Origin: an uncultured Alphaproteobacteria bacterium
GTDB taxonomy: Bacteria; Pseudomonadota; Alphaproteobacteria; RF32; CAG-239
Length of the DNA stretch: 64,000 bases
Reading direction: 5' to 3'
Assembly (NCBI GenBank): GCA_944391405.1
Contig: CALXTN010000005.1
Location: forward strand, 1,515-65,514
In this document: positions 20,378 to 64,000 of the stretch, piece by piece
Numbering within the stretch: the stretch's first letter is position 1
Layout: each line of letters begins with the position of its first letter
Position numbers and translations under genes: made by a program
The notes under the pieces: model-generated
Database searches by the model: none
The model's input: only the letters and a program-made list of their open reading frames with translations
What the model was told of the DNA's origin: nothing

Positions 20378-21010
20378 ATGAATACAGTAATAAAGCAAGA
20401 ATTTACGCCATCTTTGGTTTTATATAATGGAACTAAAGAAATAAAGGTTTCATGTAGAGAGTGGGGAGAAACTGTTCAAGAAGATGGTGAAATCCAACAG
20501 ATGGGATATATGGGGCGGATGCAATTTCGAGAAGTTTGGAAATTGGCAGGTCATTTTCAGAGTAAATATTCTAAAAAAATTTGGGAAAGGGTTGGTGTTG
20601 ATGATAGTATGAGTGATGAAATTGCTTATATTTATGTTAGTAATTTGGGATATGTGGCCGTTTTTTCTAAAGAAGAGGGAGAAGTTATTTTCAAAAATAA
20701 AGAAGGAACTGCTCAAGTTGATTTATCTTCTGAAAATAAGCAAAAATTGAAGGATAGAATTATTATTCCTCAAAATAGGAAAACAGGGTGTTATGTTTGT
20801 TTAAATGTTCTTGCTGAGACACAAAATAGTGAGTGGGATATCCATCGGTTAGTTGCTGAAAATTTTCTTGTCAAACCTTCAGATGCGTGGGGGGTACATC
20901 ATATTGACAATAATTCTTATAATAATAGTGTTACGAATCTTGTATGGGTTACGTCTGAACAGCATATAGAACATCATAGAGAATTACATCCAATGTCTTA
21001 TTCTCGGTAA
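20378..21010 (+). CDS. Free-standing HNH endonuclease-domain protein (HNH_3-like)
   Basis: C-terminal WGVHHIDNNSYNNSVTNLVWVTSEQHIEHH fits the HNH_3 motif. The likely start is the ATG at 20378 with RBS GGAGGAAAAG; the ORF-track start at 20291 overlaps trpS. Confidence 0.55.
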   Translation: MNTVIKQEFTPSLVLYNGTKEIKVSCREWGETVQEDGEIQQMGYMGRMQFREVWKLAGHFQSKYSKKIWERVGVDDSMSDEIAYIYVSNLGYVAVFSKEEGEVIFKNKEGTAQVDLSSENKQKLKDRIIIPQNRKTGCYVCLNVLAETQNSEWDIHRLVAENFLVKPSDAWGVHHIDNNSYNNSVTNLVWVTSEQHIEHHRELHPMSYSR

Positions 21011-46492: not shown

Positions 46493-46775
46493 TTTTTATA
46501 CTCCATCAAATTTTATCCGTCAAATATAATATAGATTGATATTATATAGGTCAACCTTTTTTAATGAAAAAAAAGGAGAAGTTTTTTAAAAAACTGTTAG
46601 TAAAATCTTTAAAAATATTGTGAGGGGGGTTATTGACTTCCTAAAAAAAAAAAATCGTTTTAATTTTAATATGATATAAAAAAATAAAAAAAAATGAAGA
46701 GGGATATCTTGTCAAAATAGATGTTTTTTTTATGATGAGGCTTGTTATCGAATTTGAGATTGAAAAGTATTTTTT

Positions 46776-46882: not shown

Positions 46883-48943
46883 ATGGCAAATAATGAGTTG
46901 CAAATGCCCGCGGCAAAAAAATATAAAATGCCGTTTAAAAGTATAACCAAAAGAGATGGTACTCTTGCTGATTTTGATGGTGATAAAATTTATAACGCAA
47001 TTTTAAGAGCCGGTGAAATTACGAACGAGTTTGATAATGATGATGCTTGGCTTTTAACAGCTCAAGTGATGAAAATTTTGTCTCATAAGTTTGATGAGTC
47101 TCTGCCTTCAGTTGAGGATATTCAAGATGTGGTTGAACAAGTTCTTATTTCTTCAAACTATTTTAAAACAGCTAAGTCTTATATCTTATATCGTGATAAG
47201 AGAAACAGAATGCGTGGAGATGGGAAGACTGTTATTGATGTTGAAAGCTCTGTTAATGAGTATTTGGAAAATTTGGACTGGCGTATTAAAGAGAATGCTA
47301 ATCAAGGATATTCCAACGGCGGGTTAATTTTGAATGTTTCCGGTAAAGTTACTGCCAACTACTGGCTGTCTCATGTTTATCCGGCTGAAGTTGGTGAAGC
47401 TCACAGAAATGGAGATATTCATATTCATGATTTGAGTATGTTGGCGGCTTATTGTGCCGGATGGTCTTTGAAAAATTTGTTGCGTGAAGGATTTAATGGT
47501 GTTCCTGGTAAGGTTGAAGCTGGCGCTCCGAAGCATCTTTCTTCTGCTATTGGACAGATGGTTAACTTTATGGGAACCTTGCAAAATGAATGGGCTGGTG
47601 CTCAAGCTTTTTCTTCTGTTGATACTTATTTGGCTCCGTATGTCAGAAAAGATAAGCTGAATTATGAGCAAGTAGAACAATGTATGCAAGAATTAATCTA
47701 TAATTTGAACGTTCCTTCTCGTTGGGGGTCTCAGACTCCATTTACAAACTTTACGTTTGATTGGGTTTGTCCTGAAGATTTGCGTGATCAACATCCAATT
47801 ATTGCTGGTGTTGAGCAGGATTATACCTACGGTGATTTAGGTGAAGAGATGGCTATGATTAACAAAGCTTACATCACGGTTATGATGGGTGGCGATGTTA
47901 AGGGAAGACCTTTCACTTTTCCAATTCCAACATATAATATGACTTGGGACTTTCCTTGGGAGGATGAAAATACTGAATTGTTATTTGAAATGACAGCTAA
48001 GTATGGGTTGCCTTATTTTCAGAATTTCTTGAACTCTTCTTTGAAGCCAGGTCAAATTCGTTCTATGTGCTGTCGTTTACAACTTGATTTGAGAGAACTT
48101 TTAGCTCGTGGTAATGGCTTATTTGGTTCTGCAGAACAAACCGGTTCTGTTGGGGTGGTTACAATTAACTGCGCAAGACTTGGTTATGTTTATAAAGGTA
48201 ATGAAGCAGCTTTGTTTGCCAGAGTTGATGAGTTGATGAATATTGCCAGAACTTCTTTGGAAATTAAGAGAAAAGTTATTCAACGTTTGATTGATAATGG
48301 GTTGTTCCCATTCACCAAGAGATATTTGGGCACTCTTCGTAATCACTTTTCTACTATTGGTGTCAATGGTATGAATGAAATGATTAGAAACTTTACTAAT
48401 GATGAACACAATATTGCAGATGCTTGGGGACAAGCTTTTGCTGAAAAATTCTTAGACTTTATTCGTGATAGATTAGTGAAGTTTCAAGAAGAGACTGGAC
48501 ATATGTATAACCTTGAAGCGACTCCGGCTGAAGGTGCAACAACAAGATTTGCAAGAGAAGATAAAAAACGTTATGTCGGTATTATTCAGGCGGGGACTCC
48601 TGAAGCTCCTTTCTATACAAACTCTTCTCAATTGCCGGTTGGTTATACAGATGATCCATTTGAGGCTTTGGATTTGCAAGCTAGATTGCAATCTAAGTAT
48701 ACAGGAGGTACCGTTCTTCACCTTTATATGAACCAACGTATATCCTCTGCAAAAGTTTGTCGTGACTTTATTAAAAAGGTTTTGGCTAATTATCGTTTGC
48801 CATATATCACGATTACACCGACATTCTCTGTTTGTCCAAAACATGGTTATATTGCCGGTGAACATGAATTCTGTCCGATTTGCGATCAAGAAAAGAAGGC
48901 AGAAAAGTTGAAAATGCTTGCAAAAAAGCAAGAAGTAGCGTAG
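46883..48943 (+). CDS. nrdD: Anaerobic ribonucleoside-triphosphate reductase (class III) catalytic subunit, lacking the C-terminal glycyl-radical motif
   Basis: N-terminal ATP-cone (FKSITKRDGTLADFDGDKIYNAI); NrdD core; a C-terminal Zn-ribbon-like SVCPKHGYIAGEHEFCPIC. It stops 19 aa later with no RVxGY/FNxGK motif. Confidence 0.85.
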   Translation: MANNELQMPAAKKYKMPFKSITKRDGTLADFDGDKIYNAILRAGEITNEFDNDDAWLLTAQVMKILSHKFDESLPSVEDIQDVVEQVLISSNYFKTAKSYILYRDKRNRMRGDGKTVIDVESSVNEYLENLDWRIKENANQGYSNGGLILNVSGKVTANYWLSHVYPAEVGEAHRNGDIHIHDLSMLAAYCAGWSLKNLLREGFNGVPGKVEAGAPKHLSSAIGQMVNFMGTLQNEWAGAQAFSSVDTYLAPYVRKDKLNYEQVEQCMQELIYNLNVPSRWGSQTPFTNFTFDWVCPEDLRDQHPIIAGVEQDYTYGDLGEEMAMINKAYITVMMGGDVKGRPFTFPIPTYNMTWDFPWEDENTELLFEMTAKYGLPYFQNFLNSSLKPGQIRSMCCRLQLDLRELLARGNGLFGSAEQTGSVGVVTINCARLGYVYKGNEAALFARVDELMNIARTSLEIKRKVIQRLIDNGLFPFTKRYLGTLRNHFSTIGVNGMNEMIRNFTNDEHNIADAWGQAFAEKFLDFIRDRLVKFQEETGHMYNLEATPAEGATTRFAREDKKRYVGIIQAGTPEAPFYTNSSQLPVGYTDDPFEALDLQARLQSKYTGGTVLHLYMNQRISSAKVCRDFIKKVLANYRLPYITITPTFSVCPKHGYIAGEHEFCPICDQEKKAEKLKMLAKKQEVA

Positions 48944-53200: not shown

Positions 53201-54919
53201 TTAGAAAAAATCTACAATGTTCTTGTATTTTTTCAATCCTAATTTTTTATGGGTATTGGCTATGTACTCATGCAAGTCATTCCATGTTGTATTTTCTTCT
53301 ATATATTGACGGGCTTTTTGAGGGGATTTGGATAATTGTATCTCAATTACTTGCGTTAATAAATCATACATGGCAGGGCTTACTTTGGCAAAGTCAATGT
53401 GGATTAATTTGTTTTCATCAAGAGTGATAGCTTTGTGTTGTAATAGAGTATTGAATTCTATTAAATCCACAATTTTGTATGTTTCTGTTGGAAATATTGG
53501 TTTTGCTCGTAATAGTAAGCGGAAAATCCATGTGGTATAAATTTCTTTTAATTCTTCTTCTGTGATGATGCCTTGTTTAACGTATTCTGGCATGAATGAA
53601 ATTGATACTGTATCCGCTTTGTTTTCTTCAATAATTGATTTGCAAATACCAGGGGCATTTTGATATTCGCTGTTCGGTCCTAAAGAGTGTCCGTTTTCAT
53701 GACCGATTACGAATAGATGGTCTGCTTCTAAGTTATAATATTTGTGGTAATCTGGATGTAAAAACGCATTTAGCATTTTTTGTGTTCTTTCCGGATCGTG
53801 ACTTTGTCTTACTTGACGATGGTATACGTTGCGTCTTCCTCCGCCGGTTTTGATTGATAATTTATCATTGTTGGGAAGGTTTTGGGCTACAGTCATGCCA
53901 CCACGACATTGTGCATAATCTCCGGTTAAGCTAATTAAATCAACATCAACCATGGTTTGTTTTAATTCAGTATTGGTGCTGATGGTTTGGGTGTATTGGC
54001 TGGCATGAGGCATTAAAGAACTTAATTTGGGCATCATGTTTTTGAATTTTAGGAGCAAATCTGTCCCCTTTTGGTTTACGATGCCAACACGAGCGCCTAG
54101 CATGTCTTTGGCAATGACTTCAATGTGCTTTTCAGCGATTAGTTGTGCCAATTCCGGATTTTCCAGAACGGTTGAGGTCATTTCATCATCATAATTTTCG
54201 CGACTTAATGTAAATTCTAGCGGTGTATCTTGCATCATAGCCCAATGTTTATCTGCAAGCATATCCATATCTTCGTTGTTTTGCAGTAAAGCTTGTGCTT
54301 GCCATGATAAATATTCTTTGAATAGGTTGTTAGTGCAATAATGAGCGGCGACTTCTAATTCATTGGCCATTTCTGAGAATTCTTGTTTGAAATATTCCGT
54401 ATAGTCAATCGCTTTTAATTCATCTTGTTCCCTTACAACCATAGTGCGTGCAGATAGAATTTGAGCTATTTCTTTGTCTTTTCCTTCTGCAAACATTTTT
54501 AATAAAATTTGGTGGAATTCGCTGACACTTAAATCTTGAGGATAGAAATTTTTTCCGGCAGGAGTTGTTAAACCTTTGAATATGGTAATTGGTTTCTCAT
54601 CAATGCCGTTCAGGCCACATACGCCGTTTAGAGAATTAAACATTTTTAAGGATAATGCTGCTTGTTCATCATTTGCAGCTTCTTTTTCAAGTGCTTTTTT
54701 TAATGAAATATTGTGCTGATTATCTTGTTGTAAGCTGACATTATTTAAAATTTTTGCAGCAGCTACTAAGTGTTGTAGTGCTTTTTTATCTCCTTCCTCT
54801 AGGGCTTGATATTGCACAGATTGCTCTGACAATAGGGTAATATCTGTCATTTCCTCTGTTGTCATTTTCTTGAGTTCATCAATGTTATAATTTAATTCAT
54901 AGCCATTATATGTTGTCAT
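53201..54919 (-). CDS. Zinc metallopeptidase, M49 (DPP III)-like, with HExxH pentapeptide and EENKAD second motif
   Basis: IGHENGHSLG followed 25 aa later by IEENKAD, resembling the M49 HExxGH...EExxAE pairing; 572 aa. Family assignment is tentative. Confidence 0.4.
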   Translation of the reverse strand: MTTYNGYELNYNIDELKKMTTEEMTDITLLSEQSVQYQALEEGDKKALQHLVAAAKILNNVSLQQDNQHNISLKKALEKEAANDEQAALSLKMFNSLNGVCGLNGIDEKPITIFKGLTTPAGKNFYPQDLSVSEFHQILLKMFAEGKDKEIAQILSARTMVVREQDELKAIDYTEYFKQEFSEMANELEVAAHYCTNNLFKEYLSWQAQALLQNNEDMDMLADKHWAMMQDTPLEFTLSRENYDDEMTSTVLENPELAQLIAEKHIEVIAKDMLGARVGIVNQKGTDLLLKFKNMMPKLSSLMPHASQYTQTISTNTELKQTMVDVDLISLTGDYAQCRGGMTVAQNLPNNDKLSIKTGGGRRNVYHRQVRQSHDPERTQKMLNAFLHPDYHKYYNLEADHLFVIGHENGHSLGPNSEYQNAPGICKSIIEENKADTVSISFMPEYVKQGIITEEELKEIYTTWIFRLLLRAKPIFPTETYKIVDLIEFNTLLQHKAITLDENKLIHIDFAKVSPAMYDLLTQVIEIQLSKSPQKARQYIEENTTWNDLHEYIANTHKKLGLKKYKNIVDFF

Positions 54920-56036
54920 TTAAGTTTATCTCCACTGTCTTAAATTTGTAGAATTTCATTTTAGGATTATGATAGTCAGGATTTATACCTGCTTGTTGTT
55001 TTATATAATGATAAATGTTTTCATCTTTGGCGTTTTCTTTTTTATATTTTTCTATTTCTTGAGGAAGTAAAATGTATTCACGTTGTTCAAAGCGAAATAA
55101 TAAGCCATCATTTGATAATATATTGTTCTGGTAAGGGATTTCTTGGAACGAAGTTAATAGGAATAATTTTTCTATTTTTTCTTGAGAGGTAAATTTGTGT
55201 AAACTTTTGCTAATGTTGTGAGCCAGAGATTTATTTGTATTTAAGGTGCAGATTTTTTTATTTGCAGAACATATACAAACAGCAGAATTTTTTAAAAGAA
55301 TATATTGAGCAGAAATTGGGTAATCTATTTTTGCATATGGGGTAGATGGAATGCGACTGAGAATTATATCTTTATGGTTTTCTATTAGTTTTTTTAGGTT
55401 TTCTTGTTCTTGCTCTTGTTGGTTTTGAGGTGAGGGGGAAAGTGGAGCAAAAAAATCTAAAAAAGTTTGAATTTCAGGTGTTATAACAAAGTCTTTTGGA
55501 TATGTGTAACTTATGGTATAAGGAATAAAATTTTTTGATTGAATTAGTTCTGGTATTTTATTTTCATCAGATACTACAATAAGTTGCGTTGATTTATTAT
55601 CTTGTTTTATTTGGGGAGAAAATATTTGTGCCAGTTTTAAAATCTTTTCAGAATCTGGGATTTCTGAGGAAATGTTGATTGTTGTTGCATTATTAGGTAT
55701 TAGGGAGAATGATTTTGCTAATGTAATCAGATTTTCTCTGCTGGAAAGATTGGAAATAAGAAAAATTATTTCTTCTTTTTTAGGGGTGCTCAGAATTGTT
55801 ATGGGGGTGGTTTGCGTATACCACTCTAGTGGTGTTGCTTGGAATTTATAGTTGATTAATTGTTTTTTTGTTTGATGCAAATTAATCGGAAATTGGATGA
55901 AATTGATTAAGATAATGAGTGTTATACTGATGATAAAAAGGATCCGTTTTATTTTTTTTTGACGTTCTTTCTTTTTATCTACGTACAGTAACATGGGAAA
56001 ATCTTTCGCTATTGTTTTTGCGGATGCAAGGCGCAT
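54906..56036 (-). CDS. Hypothetical single-pass membrane protein
   Basis: 376 aa; N-terminal basic stretch plus a TM helix; contains an A9 coding homopolymer at 55952..55960. Confidence 0.35.
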   Translation of the reverse strand: MRLASAKTIAKDFPMLLYVDKKKERQKKIKRILFIISITLIILINFIQFPINLHQTKKQLINYKFQATPLEWYTQTTPITILSTPKKEEIIFLISNLSSRENLITLAKSFSLIPNNATTINISSEIPDSEKILKLAQIFSPQIKQDNKSTQLIVVSDENKIPELIQSKNFIPYTISYTYPKDFVITPEIQTFLDFFAPLSPSPQNQQEQEQENLKKLIENHKDIILSRIPSTPYAKIDYPISAQYILLKNSAVCICSANKKICTLNTNKSLAHNISKSLHKFTSQEKIEKLFLLTSFQEIPYQNNILSNDGLLFRFEQREYILLPQEIEKYKKENAKDENIYHYIKQQAGINPDYHNPKMKFYKFKTVEINLNDNI

Positions 56037-58126: not shown

Positions 58127-58567
58127 TTATTCATCTGAGTTATTCTTGTTTAAGATGTTTTCTCGGGCTTTGCGAGCTTTTTCGGCGAGAGTTTTTTGAG
58201 GCAGTGAGACCTCTTTGACGATGGAAGTTTGTGGTTGAGTTGGTTTTTTTTTTAATACTGCAGCATAGGCGTTAACAATTTCATTTTCAGCTTCTGGATT
58301 TTCATTGTATTTCATTTCACAGACATATAGTGTTTTTAAGTTTCTTATCTTTTCAATAGCTTCCGGTTGTAGACCTTCTATTAGAACTATTTCACTTTTG
58401 TTGCGTGTGATCTCTATTAATTTTTCTTTTTCTTTTAATTGAAAAGTAGGATTTAACGGTTTGTTTTCGCCAGCAAAAATCAAAACCATAATCTCTCCAT
58501 TGTCATTTTCTAAAAGTTCATAGATGTTTTGAGGTTCGAGTTGTGTTTTATTTGTGGTTTCTGTCAT
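58127..58567 (-). CDS. Hypothetical protein
   Basis: 146-aa acidic ORF; no recognisable domain. Confidence 0.3.
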   Translation of the reverse strand: MTETTNKTQLEPQNIYELLENDNGEIMVLIFAGENKPLNPTFQLKEKEKLIEITRNKSEIVLIEGLQPEAIEKIRNLKTLYVCEMKYNENPEAENEIVNAYAAVLKKKPTQPQTSIVKEVSLPQKTLAEKARKARENILNKNNSDE

Positions 58568-58733: not shown

Positions 58734-58940
58734 GTGGTTCAAGTTACTGTTATCGGTAATGATGTAGCTCAGTCTTTGAAAATTTTGAAAAAGAAAATGC
58801 AACGCGAAGGTATTTTTCGTGAAATGAAGTTAAGACGTTGTCATGAGAAAAATTCAGAAAAGAAAGCTCGTCGCCAAGCTGAAGCTATTCGTAGAGCTAG
58901 AAAACAGTTGCGCAAGCGCTTAGATACTGAAGGTTTCTAA
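58734..58940 (+). CDS. rpsU: 30S ribosomal protein S21
   Basis: GTG start with [56 protein letters not shown] closely matches alphaproteobacterial S21. Confidence 0.85.
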
Positions 58941-58958
58941 TTTGACTGTTTTGTTTTG

Positions 58959-58989
58959 TGGGAATCCTTGATTAGGATTCCCTTTTTTG
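58959..58989 (+). terminator. Intrinsic terminator after rpsU
   Basis: GGGAATCC-ttgatta-GGATTCCC followed by TTTTTT. Confidence 0.6.
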
Positions 58990-59023
58990 TTGTTTGTTAC
59001 TGTTTGGGGAGGGAATATAGATA

Positions 59024-59848
59024 ATGTGTTTTGAAAAAGCTAAGGAGTGGTTGGTTGAAGAATATAAAGCATATTATCAAAAAGCTACAGAGCATGCTCG
59101 GCAGGTAATGGATGAAAAAATGAAACACTCATATCAAGTTTTGGGTGTTGGTAATTATTTACTGAAACATGAAAAAGCTTTTCAGAATTATAGTCTAGCG
59201 GAGATTCAACGGTTAAAGGCGACCGTTTTGTTGCACGATTTAGGTCGTTTTTATGAAGTATTTTTACATGAAGATGGGGGAAAGGTTGATCATGGTGTTT
59301 ATGGTGCTTCTTTGTTAGCTGAAAATCCTGATTTTAATCACATTGAGATAATTCTTCCTATAAGACATCATGGACATTTAATTGAAAAACTTTATGAAGA
59401 TGCTGATTATTTAGAATTATCAGCAGAGGATCGACTAGAAATTCAGAAAATCATTTATTTGGTGCGCGATGCTGATAAAATAGCTAATTTTTATCTTTTG
59501 TCGCGGCATTTTAGGGAAATAGAAAATGTATTTTTTCTAAAGTCTTTATTAGATTCTCAAACAAGAATACCTAGTGCAATGGTTTGGAGTGCTTTTATAA
59601 AGCATTCAGCAGTTGATGTTAAATGTGTTAAAAGTTTTGCAGATCAAGCTATTATGTATATGGCTTGTATATATGATTTAGCTTATAAATCTTCATTTGT
59701 GTTGCTAGATAGATTAAATATTTTACCTAAATTAGTTGATTGTTTTAAAAAATTTATAGCAGATGATTATATGAATATTTGCCAAAAGGAGTTGACCGAT
59801 TATCAAAAGGCTCAGTTAAGTGGACAAAAAAACTTTTTTGAGTTTTAA
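59024..59848 (+). CDS. HD-domain phosphohydrolase
   Basis: LLHDLGR...DHGVYGA...RDADKI motifs; 274 aa. Confidence 0.55.
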   Translation: MCFEKAKEWLVEEYKAYYQKATEHARQVMDEKMKHSYQVLGVGNYLLKHEKAFQNYSLAEIQRLKATVLLHDLGRFYEVFLHEDGGKVDHGVYGASLLAENPDFNHIEIILPIRHHGHLIEKLYEDADYLELSAEDRLEIQKIIYLVRDADKIANFYLLSRHFREIENVFFLKSLLDSQTRIPSAMVWSAFIKHSAVDVKCVKSFADQAIMYMACIYDLAYKSSFVLLDRLNILPKLVDCFKKFIADDYMNICQKELTDYQKAQLSGQKNFFEF

Positions 59849-59909
59849 GATGTTCTTAAGGCTTTTAGTGTATCTTTTAGATTATATAGATGTTAGTTTA
59901 GAGGGTAAA

Positions 59910-62900
59910 ATGAAAGTTTTTGGTCTTTGGGTAGGATGCTTGTTTTTTGTAGTAAGTTCTGCGTCAGCTCAAGGGATTGTTGAGTCTCGATCAAATGGTA
60001 ATTCGGCTTATAATATAAATGTTATTTCTGAAGAAGAGTATAATCAAAATATTACAGGAAATGTTTATAAAGTATATGAATTTGATGGAGCTTCTTCTCT
60101 TGTTCCTCAGTATTATCAATATAATGTAAATGAAAATAAAGAATATGAAAATGTAATTACGCAGACTGGATATGGAAGCGGTAATGGGGTGAATCCAGAA
60201 GTCAATGTGGGTGTTGCTCTTAATAATAGTGAAAATATAGAGGGTATTTCTGGTACATTGTATGAGAATAATCATTATACTTATGATTTTGTAGGCGGTG
60301 ATGTTGACACCTATATTCGTGGTGGTGCTGTTTATAATAATGGTGTTATTGGGAATAAAGATGATAATGGACATTTTGTCGGTATTGCAATTGATGCAGA
60401 TTTTATTGGAAATACTTTGACTATACAAACGCAAAAGGACGGTTTGTTGCGTGCTCAAGGTGGTGCTTTAGCTAATCAAGGGGATATAGGTAATATTCAA
60501 GGTGATTTTATTAATAATAGTGCAAACGGAATGTTTGCTTGGGGCGGAGCTATTTATAATGATAAAATTGCAATGATAGGTGATGTTTATGGTGATTTTG
60601 TTGGTAATTTTGTAAATGGAGAAAGTTCTGGTGGCGGTGCTATTATTAATGAAGGCCAAATTGGAAATATGCACAGTGATTTCGTTGCCAATTATGCCGA
60701 GACGTCTAGCTATGCGGCGGGAGGTGCTATTCATAATGACGATAATGGCTATATTGCAGGAATTAATGGTAATTTTGTAGATAATCACGTAAAGGGGGGG
60801 GCTCAGGCTTATGGTGGAGCTATTGATAATTTCTTAGGTTCTATTGGTGATATAAATGGTGATTTTAATAATAATCGAGCAATTTCAACAGATTTAGGGC
60901 AATCTTTTGGTGCTTTTGGTGGTGCTATTTCTAATCAAGAAGGTTATTTTAGCAATGTAAATGGTAATTTTTATGGAAATCAAGCATCAGCAAAAGTTTA
61001 TGCTCAAGGTGGTGCTATTTTTAATTCATATGCTCGTATTGGAAATATACAAGGTGATTTTGTTCAGAATTCAGCTGTTTCTCAAGACGCAAGTGCTTAT
61101 GGGGGCGCAATTTATAATGAGGCTGCGGTTATTGATGGTATTAAAGGGGATTTTTCTGAAAATATTGTTTCGGCTAAATTGGAAGCTCTCGGTGGTGCTA
61201 TTTACAGTATGAATGGAACGGAAAGTAATAGTACGCTTAATTTAATTAATTCTAGTTTTTACAATAATTCTGCAGTTTCAGAGGATGGAATGGCGAAGGG
61301 TGGTGCTATTTATGCGGATAATCTTACTGTTACTGCTCAAGGGCAAAACAGTATTTTTCGTGGAAATATGGCAGATAATGTAAGCAATGCTATTTATATG
61401 GATGGGGCTACCAGTAATAAAAAAGCTGAATTGAATCTGATTACTAAGGAAGATGGGAATATTGTTTTTGATGATGCTATTGATGGAGAAAATTATAATT
61501 TAAATCTAGACAGTGATGGTTCTGGTGAAGTTATTTTTAATCATATTGTTGATCATGTTAGTAATTTTAATCTTTCAGATGTTTCAGCTGTTCATTTAGG
61601 TAAAGACGCTCAGATAAATATGCAAAATTATGTTGCGGATAATAAGAATGGTAGGCCTATTTTAACATTAGATGTTGAAGTAGATAAAAGTACGGGTAGC
61701 ATTAATAATGGTATTTTGAATATTAGTGGAGATGTTTCTGGTAAAACAAATGTTGTTGTTAACTCGCTTAATCAGGATATGTTGGACGATGTTACTAATG
61801 CTAAAACTATTTTCGTTCATGCGCCTAATGATGATATGAATACCGAATCTGTTTTTAATGTCAGCCGAGTTATTGGAAGCCCTTATATGTGGGATTCTAT
61901 TCGTAATTATGGAGGAGAAACAGAAGGAAGTAACTGGTATCTGGTTGTGCGTGATAATGGTAGTGGCGAAGGTGGTGGTGATGAAGATGGAAATGATAAT
62001 CCGCCAAGTGATGTTGTATATGCTCCAGAGATCCCTGCTTATGTAGGTATACAGACAGCTGTTGTTGAACAGAATCGTAATCTTGGGCGGAAAATTGCTG
62101 CGGGGTTACGTTCTGAGCAAAATAAAGGATGTTGTGACAGAAAATTTCAGCATGCATATAATATGTGGATTGATGCAGATTATGATAGTGCAAAAATTGA
62201 TGCTCCGGCTGATATGGATGCAAGTGTTCAGGGGGTAACTGCGGGAGTTGATTTTAAAACTGATAATTATAGTCGTTTGGGAGCTTTTGCTTCATATCGG
62301 AAAGGTGATTATGATTTGTCTGGGAAAGGAAAGTATGCTTCGGATTCAGGATCTTCGTTGGATGTAGATAGTTATTTAGGCGGTTTATATTATCATTATG
62401 GGCGTTATAATTGGAATATTTTAGCTACGTTATTTGGTGGAACTAATGATATTAATATTGAAACTGATGATAGAATTGTTTTTGCTGATACAAAAGGTAC
62501 GCAATATGGAGCTAGTGTTGAGGTGGCAAAGAAGTTTTATTTGCCGTATGCTTGGATTATTGAACCTAGTGCAAGTTTGTTCTATTCAGCTTTAGATTTG
62601 GATGGGTTTAGTGATAATATGGGGAAAAGTGTTGATTTTGATTTGATGCACTATATTGAAGCTGAACTGGGGTTGAGATTTGAGCATTTGTTTTGCTTAA
62701 ATGGGTGGACTACAAAAGTTTATGCTAAACCTTCTATTATTCAAACTTATGCTAGTGGCGATTCAGTCAATATTAGTGGCTTAAATGATATTTCTACCTA
62801 TGATAATCAGTTATTGGGGAAAATGGAGTTAGGGGCAAAGTTTGGCTTGTCTCGTACTCTATCAGCTTATGCTGCGGCTAATTATACGTTTGGTAGTAAT

Positions 62901-62945
62901 TATTCTGGATATGGTATTAATGCTGGATTAAATTACGCTTGGTGA
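59910..62945 (+). CDS. Autotransporter with a Pmp-type (GGAI / FxxN repeat) passenger domain and a C-terminal beta-barrel translocator
   Basis: Signal peptide MKVFGLWVGCLFFVVSSASAQG with RBS GAGGG. Over 12 GGAI(Y/F/H/I)N repeats alternate with (Q/N)GDF/FxxN. An acidic Gly-rich linker precedes a roughly 270-aa beta-domain ending ...GINAGLNYAW. Confidence 0.8.
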   Translation: MKVFGLWVGCLFFVVSSASAQGIVESRSNGNSAYNINVISEEEYNQNITGNVYKVYEFDGASSLVPQYYQYNVNENKEYENVITQTGYGSGNGVNPEVNVGVALNNSENIEGISGTLYENNHYTYDFVGGDVDTYIRGGAVYNNGVIGNKDDNGHFVGIAIDADFIGNTLTIQTQKDGLLRAQGGALANQGDIGNIQGDFINNSANGMFAWGGAIYNDKIAMIGDVYGDFVGNFVNGESSGGGAIINEGQIGNMHSDFVANYAETSSYAAGGAIHNDDNGYIAGINGNFVDNHVKGGAQAYGGAIDNFLGSIGDINGDFNNNRAISTDLGQSFGAFGGAISNQEGYFSNVNGNFYGNQASAKVYAQGGAIFNSYARIGNIQGDFVQNSAVSQDASAYGGAIYNEAAVIDGIKGDFSENIVSAKLEALGGAIYSMNGTESNSTLNLINSSFYNNSAVSEDGMAKGGAIYADNLTVTAQGQNSIFRGNMADNVSNAIYMDGATSNKKAELNLITKEDGNIVFDDAIDGENYNLNLDSDGSGEVIFNHIVDHVSNFNLSDVSAVHLGKDAQINMQNYVADNKNGRPILTLDVEVDKSTGSINNGILNISGDVSGKTNVVVNSLNQDMLDDVTNAKTIFVHAPNDDMNTESVFNVSRVIGSPYMWDSIRNYGGETEGSNWYLVVRDNGSGEGGGDEDGNDNPPSDVVYAPEIPAYVGIQTAVVEQNRNLGRKIAAGLRSEQNKGCCDRKFQHAYNMWIDADYDSAKIDAPADMDASVQGVTAGVDFKTDNYSRLGAFASYRKGDYDLSGKGKYASDSGSSLDVDSYLGGLYYHYGRYNWNILATLFGGTNDINIETDDRIVFADTKGTQYGASVEVAKKFYLPYAWIIEPSASLFYSALDLDGFSDNMGKSVDFDLMHYIEAELGLRFEHLFCLNGWTTKVYAKPSIIQTYASGDSVNISGLNDISTYDNQLLGKMELGAKFGLSRTLSAYAAANYTFGSNYSGYGINAGLNYAW
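60794..60801 (+). repeat. G8 homopolymeric tract inside the autotransporter coding sequence
   Basis: aaaGGGGGGGGctc encodes K-G-G-A in frame. A poly-G tract of this length is rare in a genome of this GC content. Confidence 0.6.
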
Positions 62946-62966
62946 TGTAGGTGGTTGACGTTTTAT

Positions 62967-63006
62967 AAAATAACAAAGCCCGCAATTTTGCGGGCTTTGT
63001 TATTTT
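62967..63006. terminator. Long perfect-palindrome bidirectional terminator between the autotransporter gene and nusG
   Basis: AAAATAACAAAGCCCGCAA-tt-TTGCGGGCTTTGTTATTTT. Confidence 0.6.
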
Positions 63007-63034
63007 ATAAAACATATTGATAGTTTTTTTGTTA

Positions 63035-63568
63035 TTAAGCGATTTTTTCTACCTGGCTGAATTCTAAATCAACAGGAGTGTAACGTCCGAAGATGGAAAC
63101 TGATACTTTAACGCGAGATTTTTCGTTATCAACTTCTTCTACGACGCCCACAAATGATGCGAAGGGGCCATCTGTTACGCGAACTTGTTCGCCAACTTCA
63201 AAGTAAATCTCTGTAGATGGACGTTCAACGCCTTCTTCAATTTGAGTCATGATACGTTTAACTTCGGCTTCGCTGATTGGTTGTGGCTTATTATGACTGC
63301 CTAAAAAACCGCTTACACGAGGTGTATCTTTAACAATGTGCCATGCATCATCACTCATTTCCATTTTTACTAAAATGTATCCTGGGAAAAATTTGTGCTC
63401 AGCATTAACTTTTGTTCCTTTGCGAACTTCAACGACTTGTTCGGTTGGAACTAAAACTTCTAAAATTCTATCATCCATTTTTTTCAAAACGGCTTGTTCT
63501 CTGATTGATTCAGCAACTTTCTTTTCTGAACCGGAATATACGTTTACAACATACCAACGCGCTGTCAT
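63035..63568 (-). CDS. nusG: Transcription termination/antitermination factor NusG
   Basis: NGN domain (WYVVNVYSGSEKKV) and a KOW motif at the C-terminus; 177 aa. Confidence 0.9.
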   Translation of the reverse strand: MTARWYVVNVYSGSEKKVAESIREQAVLKKMDDRILEVLVPTEQVVEVRKGTKVNAEHKFFPGYILVKMEMSDDAWHIVKDTPRVSGFLGSHNKPQPISEAEVKRIMTQIEEGVERPSTEIYFEVGEQVRVTDGPFASFVGVVEEVDNEKSRVKVSVSIFGRYTPVDLEFSQVEKIA

Positions 63569-63577
63569 TGAAAACTC

Positions 63578-63769
63578 CTAATATTTGAAGATTAAACGAA
63601 CTATTGCGGCAAATATCATGTCTACGCAAAAGAAAAATGCTGATGCAATTGCGACGATTACTAAAACCATAACCGTGGCACGCATTACTTCCTTTTTAGA
63701 AGGCCAAGTAACCTTTTTTACTTCTTGTTTAACTTGTCTAAAAAATTGTACCGGACTTGTATTTCCCAT
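63578..63769 (-). CDS. secE: Protein translocase subunit SecE
   Basis: 63 aa with a single TM helix; KVTWPSKKEV motif; immediately upstream of nusG. Confidence 0.85.
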   Translation of the reverse strand: MGNTSPVQFFRQVKQEVKKVTWPSKKEVMRATVMVLVIVAIASAFFFCVDMIFAAIVRLIFKY

Positions 63770-64000
63770 AGCTCTACCATTTCAATTACATTGATAAAAA
63801 TTAGCAGGATGTTCTTAGGCGTTTTCTGATTTGTAAGATTTTTCTTTTATATCATTATGATGCCATCCATCCTAACAGATGTGCCAAACATATTAAAAAA
63901 TTTTTTAGATGTCAATAAATATATTGATTGTTTACGCAGGTTATCTTTGACAGAGTTATATCTCTTTGATTGATGGAGAGGTGAGAACTACTTTGTTTTG

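Follow-up and report, generated by a model that had tools for sequence, protein, structure and literature searches.

A G8 run in the Pmp-like autotransporter gene of an uncultured gut alphaproteobacterium is best explained as incidental

Does an uninterrupted run of eight guanines inside the coding sequence of a surface protein mark a phase-variation switch, or is it an incidental product of the way in which glycine-rich proteins are encoded? The question is raised by a 64,000-nucleotide (nt) stretch of DNA (64 kb) from an uncultured Alphaproteobacteria bacterium (contig CALXTN010000005.1), referred to here as the window; all coordinates are window positions. It contains a gene for a type Va autotransporter that resembles the polymorphic membrane proteins (Pmps) of Chlamydia. 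An earlier note, made from the sequence alone, had described a passenger built of alternating Pmp-type units, a classical autotransporter barrel and an in-frame G8 run, the last of which it took for a phase-variation switch. The two features at issue are the following, with lengths of proteins given in amino acid residues (aa).

59910..62945, + strand: coding sequence of the Pmp-like type Va autotransporter, 1011 aa, stop codon included (open reading frame list, Pfam/NCBIfam, homologues, synteny).
60794..60801, + strand: G8 homopolymer GGGGGGGG, in frame, AAG GGG GGG GCT = K295 G296 G297 A298 (sequence).

The tract is best explained as an incidental, lineage-specific result of coding Lys-Gly-Gly-Ala as AAG GGG GGG GCT, and not as an evolved contingency tract; the protein possesses 19 Gly-Gly dipeptides and its gene lies on a strongly G-skewed strand. 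The locus as a whole is likely to be a conserved autotransporter, single-copy in synteny, of an uncultured, low-GC, anaerobic gut alphaproteobacterium in which the G8 has arisen by chance.

The G8 is located in a variable linker, six residues ahead of a canonical GGAID motif. Its presence in the coding sequence, in frame, is confirmed, and so is the contention that poly-G of this length is rare, since this is the sole G/C run of seven or more in the 64 kb; the next longest G runs are two of G6, at 20889 and 46624, and no run of C exceeds five. As in contingency genes, the run is so placed that a change in its length alters the reading frame. When G6, G7, G9 and G10 were substituted in silico, a stop was encountered at codons 305-310, within 14 codons, with the loss of most of the passenger and of the barrel. 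Slippage at the G8 would thus be expected to turn the gene off through an early stop, leaving a product without a barrel. The tract could serve as an off switch, and for that reason the idea of a switch is not to be dismissed on consensus sequence alone.

How often such a run is to be expected was estimated with three null models. In the first, the window was shuffled 100 times with its dinucleotide composition preserved; the shuffles averaged 0.55 G8 runs, with at least one in 32 of the 100. In the second, synonymous codons were resampled while the amino acid sequence was held fixed. Twelve of the 19 Gly-Gly dipeptides are followed by Ala, and the resulting GGN GGN GCN needs only one or two synonymous changes to become a G7. 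Codon resampling gave a probability of 0.29-0.53 for a run of at least G7 in this protein, and of 0.05-0.07 (window codon usage) or 0.15 (the gene's own usage) for at least G8. The same procedure predicted 0.41 runs of G7 or more for the other 49 large open reading frames (ORFs) of the window, where none is present, and, as the third null, 5.06 for 10 orthologous lineages, where three were observed; the family-wide tract frequency was rated at or below the codon-usage expectation. The frequency of G8 is within chance expectation for a protein rich in Gly-Gly-Ala.

Similar runs are found in a non-surface gene of related bacteria. The orthologues of window ORF 54906..56036 (minus strand) encode a conserved protein of ~365 aa with a hydrophobic N-terminal segment and no Pfam match; two related genomes have a C8 there (coding strand), in frame at Phe-Pro-Pro but not at the same position (L004 1171..1178 and L009 1285..1292). 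The occurrence of C8 at Pro-Pro in an unrelated gene indicates that such runs arise sporadically wherever Gly-Gly or Pro-Pro is encoded. The window copy of this ORF is without C8 and has only an A9 (Lys-Lys-Lys) near its 5′ end, at 55952..55960. Near a more distant orthologue of the autotransporter gene there is another C8 run (L015 349..356), which is intergenic and 34 nt beyond the stop codon of that gene.

Comparison with orthologues did not support the claim of a switch. The earlier note had named in advance, as evidence that would refute it, homologues with an interrupted tract at the same codons, and at the codons matching K295-A298 no tract was found in any of the 12 orthologous loci examined. 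The nearest relatives read AAA GGA GCT GTT, AAA GGT GCG GCG and CAA GGT GCA GAA at this site. The second Gly of K-G-G-A is not conserved, the relatives possessing K-G-A-V/A. From these alignments the tract is read as a young, lineage-specific feature of a variable linker.

Nor did the length of the tract vary among assemblies. It is G8, and in frame, in the window, in a contig identical to the window (L002) and in a Logan contig from SRR19070415 (L001). The last represents a different strain, 99.1% identical, with 44 single-nucleotide polymorphisms (SNPs) in 5.2 kb, nearly all of them in nusG/secE. A frameshifted copy would be ~305 aa long, identical to the query and ranked in the top 25 of a protein search; no truncated near-identical product is present among the matches listed (best 120 of 1198), and the cluster at 90% has no second member. 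Scans of JGI metagenomes, using the flanks with a variable gap, as long flanks or as degenerate short flanks, returned no copies and are uninformative, the allele being held only in NCBI, ENA and Logan. A lineage with 74% identity (P0005) has an independent G7 at GGAIHN and a G8 at GGAIFN. All 12 alleles of its cluster are full length (1008 aa), and the only difference in tract length among them, G8 versus G7, is due to the codon ahead of the tract, which is CAG or the synonymous CAA, without any insertion or deletion; these alleles diverge by 2.8% or less and are a shallow sample. Every allele observed is "on."

Short members of the orthologue clusters were also considered as candidates for switched-off copies. 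P0156 and P0158 were rejected as off-alleles after a check at the DNA level revealed 100-N scaffold gaps, and P0154 was rejected as a homopolymer frameshift, being the product of a repeat-to-repeat deletion. For P0165, P0143 and the other short members, the inspection covered protein sequences only.

The chief rival to an incidental origin is that the G8 is a contingency locus, at which slipped-strand mispairing to G7 or G9 would turn a surface adhesin off frequently and reversibly; were this true, switching would aid evasion of mucosal antibody or phage, or change adhesion, in the manner proposed for poly-G tracts of the chlamydial pmpG family and demonstrated for homopolymers in Neisseria, Haemophilus and Campylobacter genes. 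We consider this unlikely, while recognizing that a number of observations weigh against an incidental origin. A G8 in a gene for a surface protein is intrinsically slippage-prone, and this one, the only G/C run of seven or more in the window, is in frame in the 5′ third of the gene (codon 295 of 1011), where any change of one nucleotide brings a stop within 14 codons. Window-wide codon usage makes the tract mildly improbable (p about 0.05-0.07); GGG accounts for only 12% of the Gly codons of the window, yet two adjacent GGG codons follow AAG, itself 18% of Lys codons. In the 10 orthologous lineages 0.92 runs of G8 or more were expected from codon resampling versus two observed, and the second lineage has gained its G7 and G8 independently in the orthologous gene. 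The window allele is present on only about five contigs, and assemblies give a consensus sequence in which minority off-variants would stay hidden. There is also precedent, in that the pmp genes of Chlamydia, the closest relatives by motif, contain long poly-G tracts for which phase variation has been suspected (PMC3323650, PMC4488443). Against frequent switching stand the absence of length variants from the assemblies of both the window allele and the tract-bearing sister lineage, the orthologues without a tract at the K295-A298 codons, a family-wide tract frequency no higher than codon usage predicts, the presence of G8 in 32% of the composition-matched shuffles, and the in-frame C8 runs in a non-surface gene of relatives. 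In addition, eight G's is near the lower limit of tract length at which appreciable variation occurs in repair-proficient bacteria. Switching of the G8 at a low level or low rate is possible. A related proposal, which we hold to be distinctly unlikely, is that the G8 is a functional contingency tract of recent origin, and that Pmp-type passengers are predisposed to slippage switches that arise repeatedly and independently. The predisposition would exist because the GGA motif is coded GGN GGN GCN and is one or two synonymous changes from G7-G8; the instances that may be cited for repeated birth are K295-A298 of the window and the two canonical GGAI motifs of the 74%-identical lineage.

It is also conceivable, though very unlikely, that this gene family varies mainly by recombination between its ~90-nt GGA/FxxN repeats, with the loss or gain of coils, and not through a homopolymer. 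In one lineage, an orthologue (P0007 lineage; L021 4001..6488 and L022 1235..3722) bears an out-of-frame deletion of ~550 nt which splits the gene into products of 217 and 618 aa; its two ends fall in GGA/FxxN repeat units that have 10 nt in common. It was found in two samples, an ENA/NCBI scaffold and a Logan contig. Either the deletion is real and repeat-mediated, in which case the allele is a pseudogene or an off state, or the repeats have collapsed in assembly. Distant orthologues that are short of whole repeat units are in keeping with such recombination, but the scaffold gaps in other short cluster members are not instances of it, and the allele of the window shows no such variant. The suggestion that the G8 is an error of sequencing or assembly, the true run being of another length or interrupted, has in its support the fact that homopolymers are prone to error on some platforms. 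It is scarcely credible, and was rejected: the frame is open over 1011 codons only with exactly eight G's, and the same in-frame G8 is found in the independent sample and strain from SRR19070415, 44 SNPs removed from the window.

On the identity of the protein the earlier description was borne out. The following parts could be delimited within the gene.

59910..59969, + strand: Sec signal peptide MKVFGLWVGCLFFVVSSASA, with predicted cleavage after ASA (sequence reading).
59997..61949, + strand: passenger domain, predicted to be all-beta (beta-helix type), aa ~30-680 (AlphaFold2, Foldseek).
60321..61367, + strand: Pmp-type repeat region, aa 138-486 (motif count; PF02415 on a fragment).
61950..62021, + strand: low-complexity Gly/Asp/Glu-rich spacer, aa 681-704 (pLDDT <50; gapped alignment block).
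62028..62111, + strand: alpha-helical linker, aa 707-734 (DSSP helices in the model; conserved PEIPAY..Q.A..EQNR segment).
62166..62942, + strand: autotransporter beta-barrel translocator domain, with the C-terminus ...GLNYAW (PF03797, TIGR01414, Foldseek, phmmer).

The signal peptide was judged by eye from the sequence; alignment reveals that a hydrophobic N-terminus ending in A-x-A is kept across the orthologues. Between residues 138 and 486, 11 GGA[ILV] and 11 FxxN motifs occur in strict alternation at a period of ~30 aa, which upholds the claim of a repeat passenger, as Pmp-like rather than as a member of the Pmp family. The Pfam profile Chlam_PMP (PF02415) scored 35.6 bits in six stretches on the fragment 60300-61400. 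On the whole protein it reached only 15.6 bits, under the gathering cutoff of 20.6, and TIGR01376 gave 11.1 bits on the repeat fragment, under its cutoff of 15. No Pmp middle domain was detected; PF03797 and PF02415 were the only matches at E<=10, a search in which the HMMER filters drop most matches above ~E 0.1. Membership of the chlamydial Pmp family was set aside in view of the missing middle domain and the subthreshold whole-protein profiles, and the designation "Pmp-like" was retained.

The C-terminal part, described beforehand as a classical barrel ending in NYAW, proved to be just that. Pfam Autotransporter (PF03797) matched residues 753-990 with an E value of 2.7e-31 (109.7 bits; cutoff 26) and NCBIfam TIGR01414 with 7e-28 (97.8 bits; cutoff 16), while phmmer matched the protein to the BrkA structure 3qq2. 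An AlphaFold2 model made with 16 orthologues (mean pLDDT 80.7) shows, as the earlier note had proposed to check, a predicted all-beta passenger followed by a barrel. Foldseek placed the barrel closest to the BrkA beta-domain (TM 0.80-0.82, E 2e-9), followed by EspP, NalP, Hbp and AIDA-I, and matched the passenger to pertactin (E 4e-4) and Ag43 (E 1.5e-3). The pLDDT of the passenger is mostly 85-97 over residues 30-620, with short beta strands throughout and the high-confidence all-beta part reaching to about residue 640, and residues 293-301, around the site encoded by the G8, are modeled as short strands and a turn within a high-confidence coil. The spacer, which varies in length between orthologues, is disordered in the model (pLDDT <50). 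It is followed by helices at 707-722 and 725-734 (DSSP), a linker which, from known autotransporter structures, we infer to fill the barrel pore.

By its sequence and predicted fold the protein belongs with the classical type Va autotransporters; its passenger is Pmp-like, very regular and predicted to be displayed. As in other members of the type, Sec would carry the protein across the inner membrane, the C-terminal 12-stranded barrel would enter the outer membrane, and the helix-linked passenger, presumably a long beta-helix of about 11 Pmp-type GGA(I/L/V)...FxxN coils, would be shown at the cell surface. By analogy with the chlamydial Pmps only, it most likely acts as an adhesin. Alignment of more distant orthologues (P0011-P0018; 47-51% identity) reveals that one or two whole ~30-aa repeat units are missing from them (columns 384-460), and the number of beta-helix coils would appear to differ between species by whole repeats.

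Two further features border the coding sequence.

59900..59905, + strand: Shine-Dalgarno-like AGAGGG, 4 nt before the ATG (read from the sequence; orthologues start at the equivalent Met).
62961..63012, no strand assigned: hairpin, a perfect 24-bp palindrome between the autotransporter gene and the convergent nusG (RNA folding).

The mechanical ORF opens at GTG 59820; the orthologues align from ATG 59910, giving the 1011-aa product, and AGAGGG sits 5-10 nt upstream of this ATG. The hairpin has a predicted ΔG of -33.1 kcal/mol (z -9.2), equalled by none of 200 shuffles, and is probably a bidirectional intrinsic terminator, although a scan for consensus terminators did not report it. The gene also encloses two ORFs on the minus strand (59991..60458 and 60468..60788), which were taken as mirror-frame artefacts of its AT-rich, repetitive sequence; the sole basis for this is their Ile/Asn-rich low-complexity translations. 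The strain represented by L001 was compared with the window over 58736..63949. It differs by only two SNPs from 58736 to ~63100, one of these being synonymous and within the 3-kb autotransporter gene, and by 42 SNPs in the next ~830 nt, which contain nusG and secE. This distribution points to a sharp recombination boundary in L001 just beyond the terminator hairpin.

The protein search yielded 1198 homologues at E<=1e-5. Those with a name are few and are annotated as [quoted passage not shown] from metagenome-assembled genomes (MAGs), the hosts being mostly Alphaproteobacteria bacterium or "Azospirillum sp.," with one labelled Lactobacillaceae. The genome scan revealed 14 loci, most of which belong to MAGs with the title uncultured Alphaproteobacteria bacterium, whose sample names refer to human, mouse and ruminant gut studies. 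The order rpsU (S21), HD-domain gene, autotransporter, convergent nusG and secE is conserved in more than 10 species-level MAGs; the syntenic orthologues share 44-79% protein identity, and among the loci examined there is one syntenic copy per genome.

Elsewhere the window encodes gyrB, nrdD (anaerobic ribonucleotide reductase), serS, lepA, typA and an AcrB pump; the proximity of nrdD, gyrB, serS, lepA and acrB indicates that this is chromosomal DNA of an anaerobe. A scan of the ten larger ORFs of the window revealed no mismatch-repair gene. The window has a GC content of 34%, and its + strand contains 13297 G versus 8744 C, with T exceeding A. The GC skew is +0.08 to +0.29 in every 4-kb block and about +0.2 overall, whatever the orientation of the genes, and of the 27 G/C runs of at least five nt, 26 consist of G on the + strand. 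From its composition, the whole window appears to lie on the leading strand of one replichore, with an unusually large skew. Other homopolymers were recorded. A T10 run at 58244..58253 (coding-strand A10, Lys-Lys-Lys-Pro) is in frame in a 146-aa minus-strand ORF (58127..58567) and is longer than the G8. The most homopolymer-rich spot in the window is intergenic, ahead of nrdD (46883..48943), where A12 (46643..46654) and A9 (46686..46694) are ~30 nt apart and G6 (46624..46629) is situated just upstream.

The nearest analogues of this protein are the chlamydial Pmps, such as C. pneumoniae Pmp21 and Pmp10 and C. trachomatis PmpD and PmpG, which likewise possess a Sec signal, a passenger of alternating GGA(I/L/V) and FxxN motifs and a C-terminal barrel. 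Their motif counts are similar to the 11 + 11 found here (PMC2997323, PMC4488443), the motifs being needed for adhesion by C. pneumoniae Pmp21, Pmp6 and Pmp20 (PMC2997323), and some pmp genes have in-frame poly-G tracts (PMC4488443). In C. psittaci, the frame of three pmp poly-G tracts was not the same in two sequencing projects carried out on one strain (PMC3323650). The pmpG gene of C. trachomatis carries G8-G9, in frame in 53 of 53 genomes surveyed, and phase variation has only been suggested for it (PMC4488443); the G8 described here likewise has the potential without demonstrated variation. The differences from the Pmps are the lack of a detectable middle domain, the whole-protein PF02415 and TIGR01376 scores below cutoff, a host which is a free-living gut alphaproteobacterium, one syntenic copy per genome (in the loci examined) versus a large paralogous family, and repeats that are far more regular, with their period of ~30 aa.

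With the type Va proteins BrkA, pertactin, Ag43, AIDA-I, EspP, Hbp and NalP it shares the order of domains and the alpha-helical linker, its barrel superposing on those of BrkA, EspP, NalP, Hbp and AIDA-I and its passenger on pertactin/Ag43 at E ~1e-3. Its identity to any solved structure is, however, 22% or less, its passenger repeat is of the Pmp and not the pertactin/AIDA type, and it has no protease domain. Homopolymeric contingency genes, among them Neisseria NalP/AutA, the poly-G genes of Campylobacter and those of Haemophilus, resemble it in possessing an in-frame G run in the 5′ region, a frameshift in which abolishes the product. In such genes the tract is of different length in different isolates and even inside one population, and tracts are commoner than composition would predict, whereas here no variation in length was seen and the frequency fits the expectation from codon usage.

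The lesson of this locus is that a homopolymer which lies in frame in a gene rich in Gly-Gly needs a codon-aware null before it is labelled a contingency locus. If the G8 truly switched, it would be a first hint of phase-variable surface display in this uncultured gut group of Alphaproteobacteria, and gut commensals of this class would have for a Pmp-like adhesin the on/off control that has been proposed in Chlamydia; a predisposition of the GGA motif, if real, would offer a simple codon-level reason for the gain of poly-G tracts by Pmp-type genes. As it stands, the locus is a further Pmp-like autotransporter from outside the chlamydiae, conserved beside nusG/secE in this clade.

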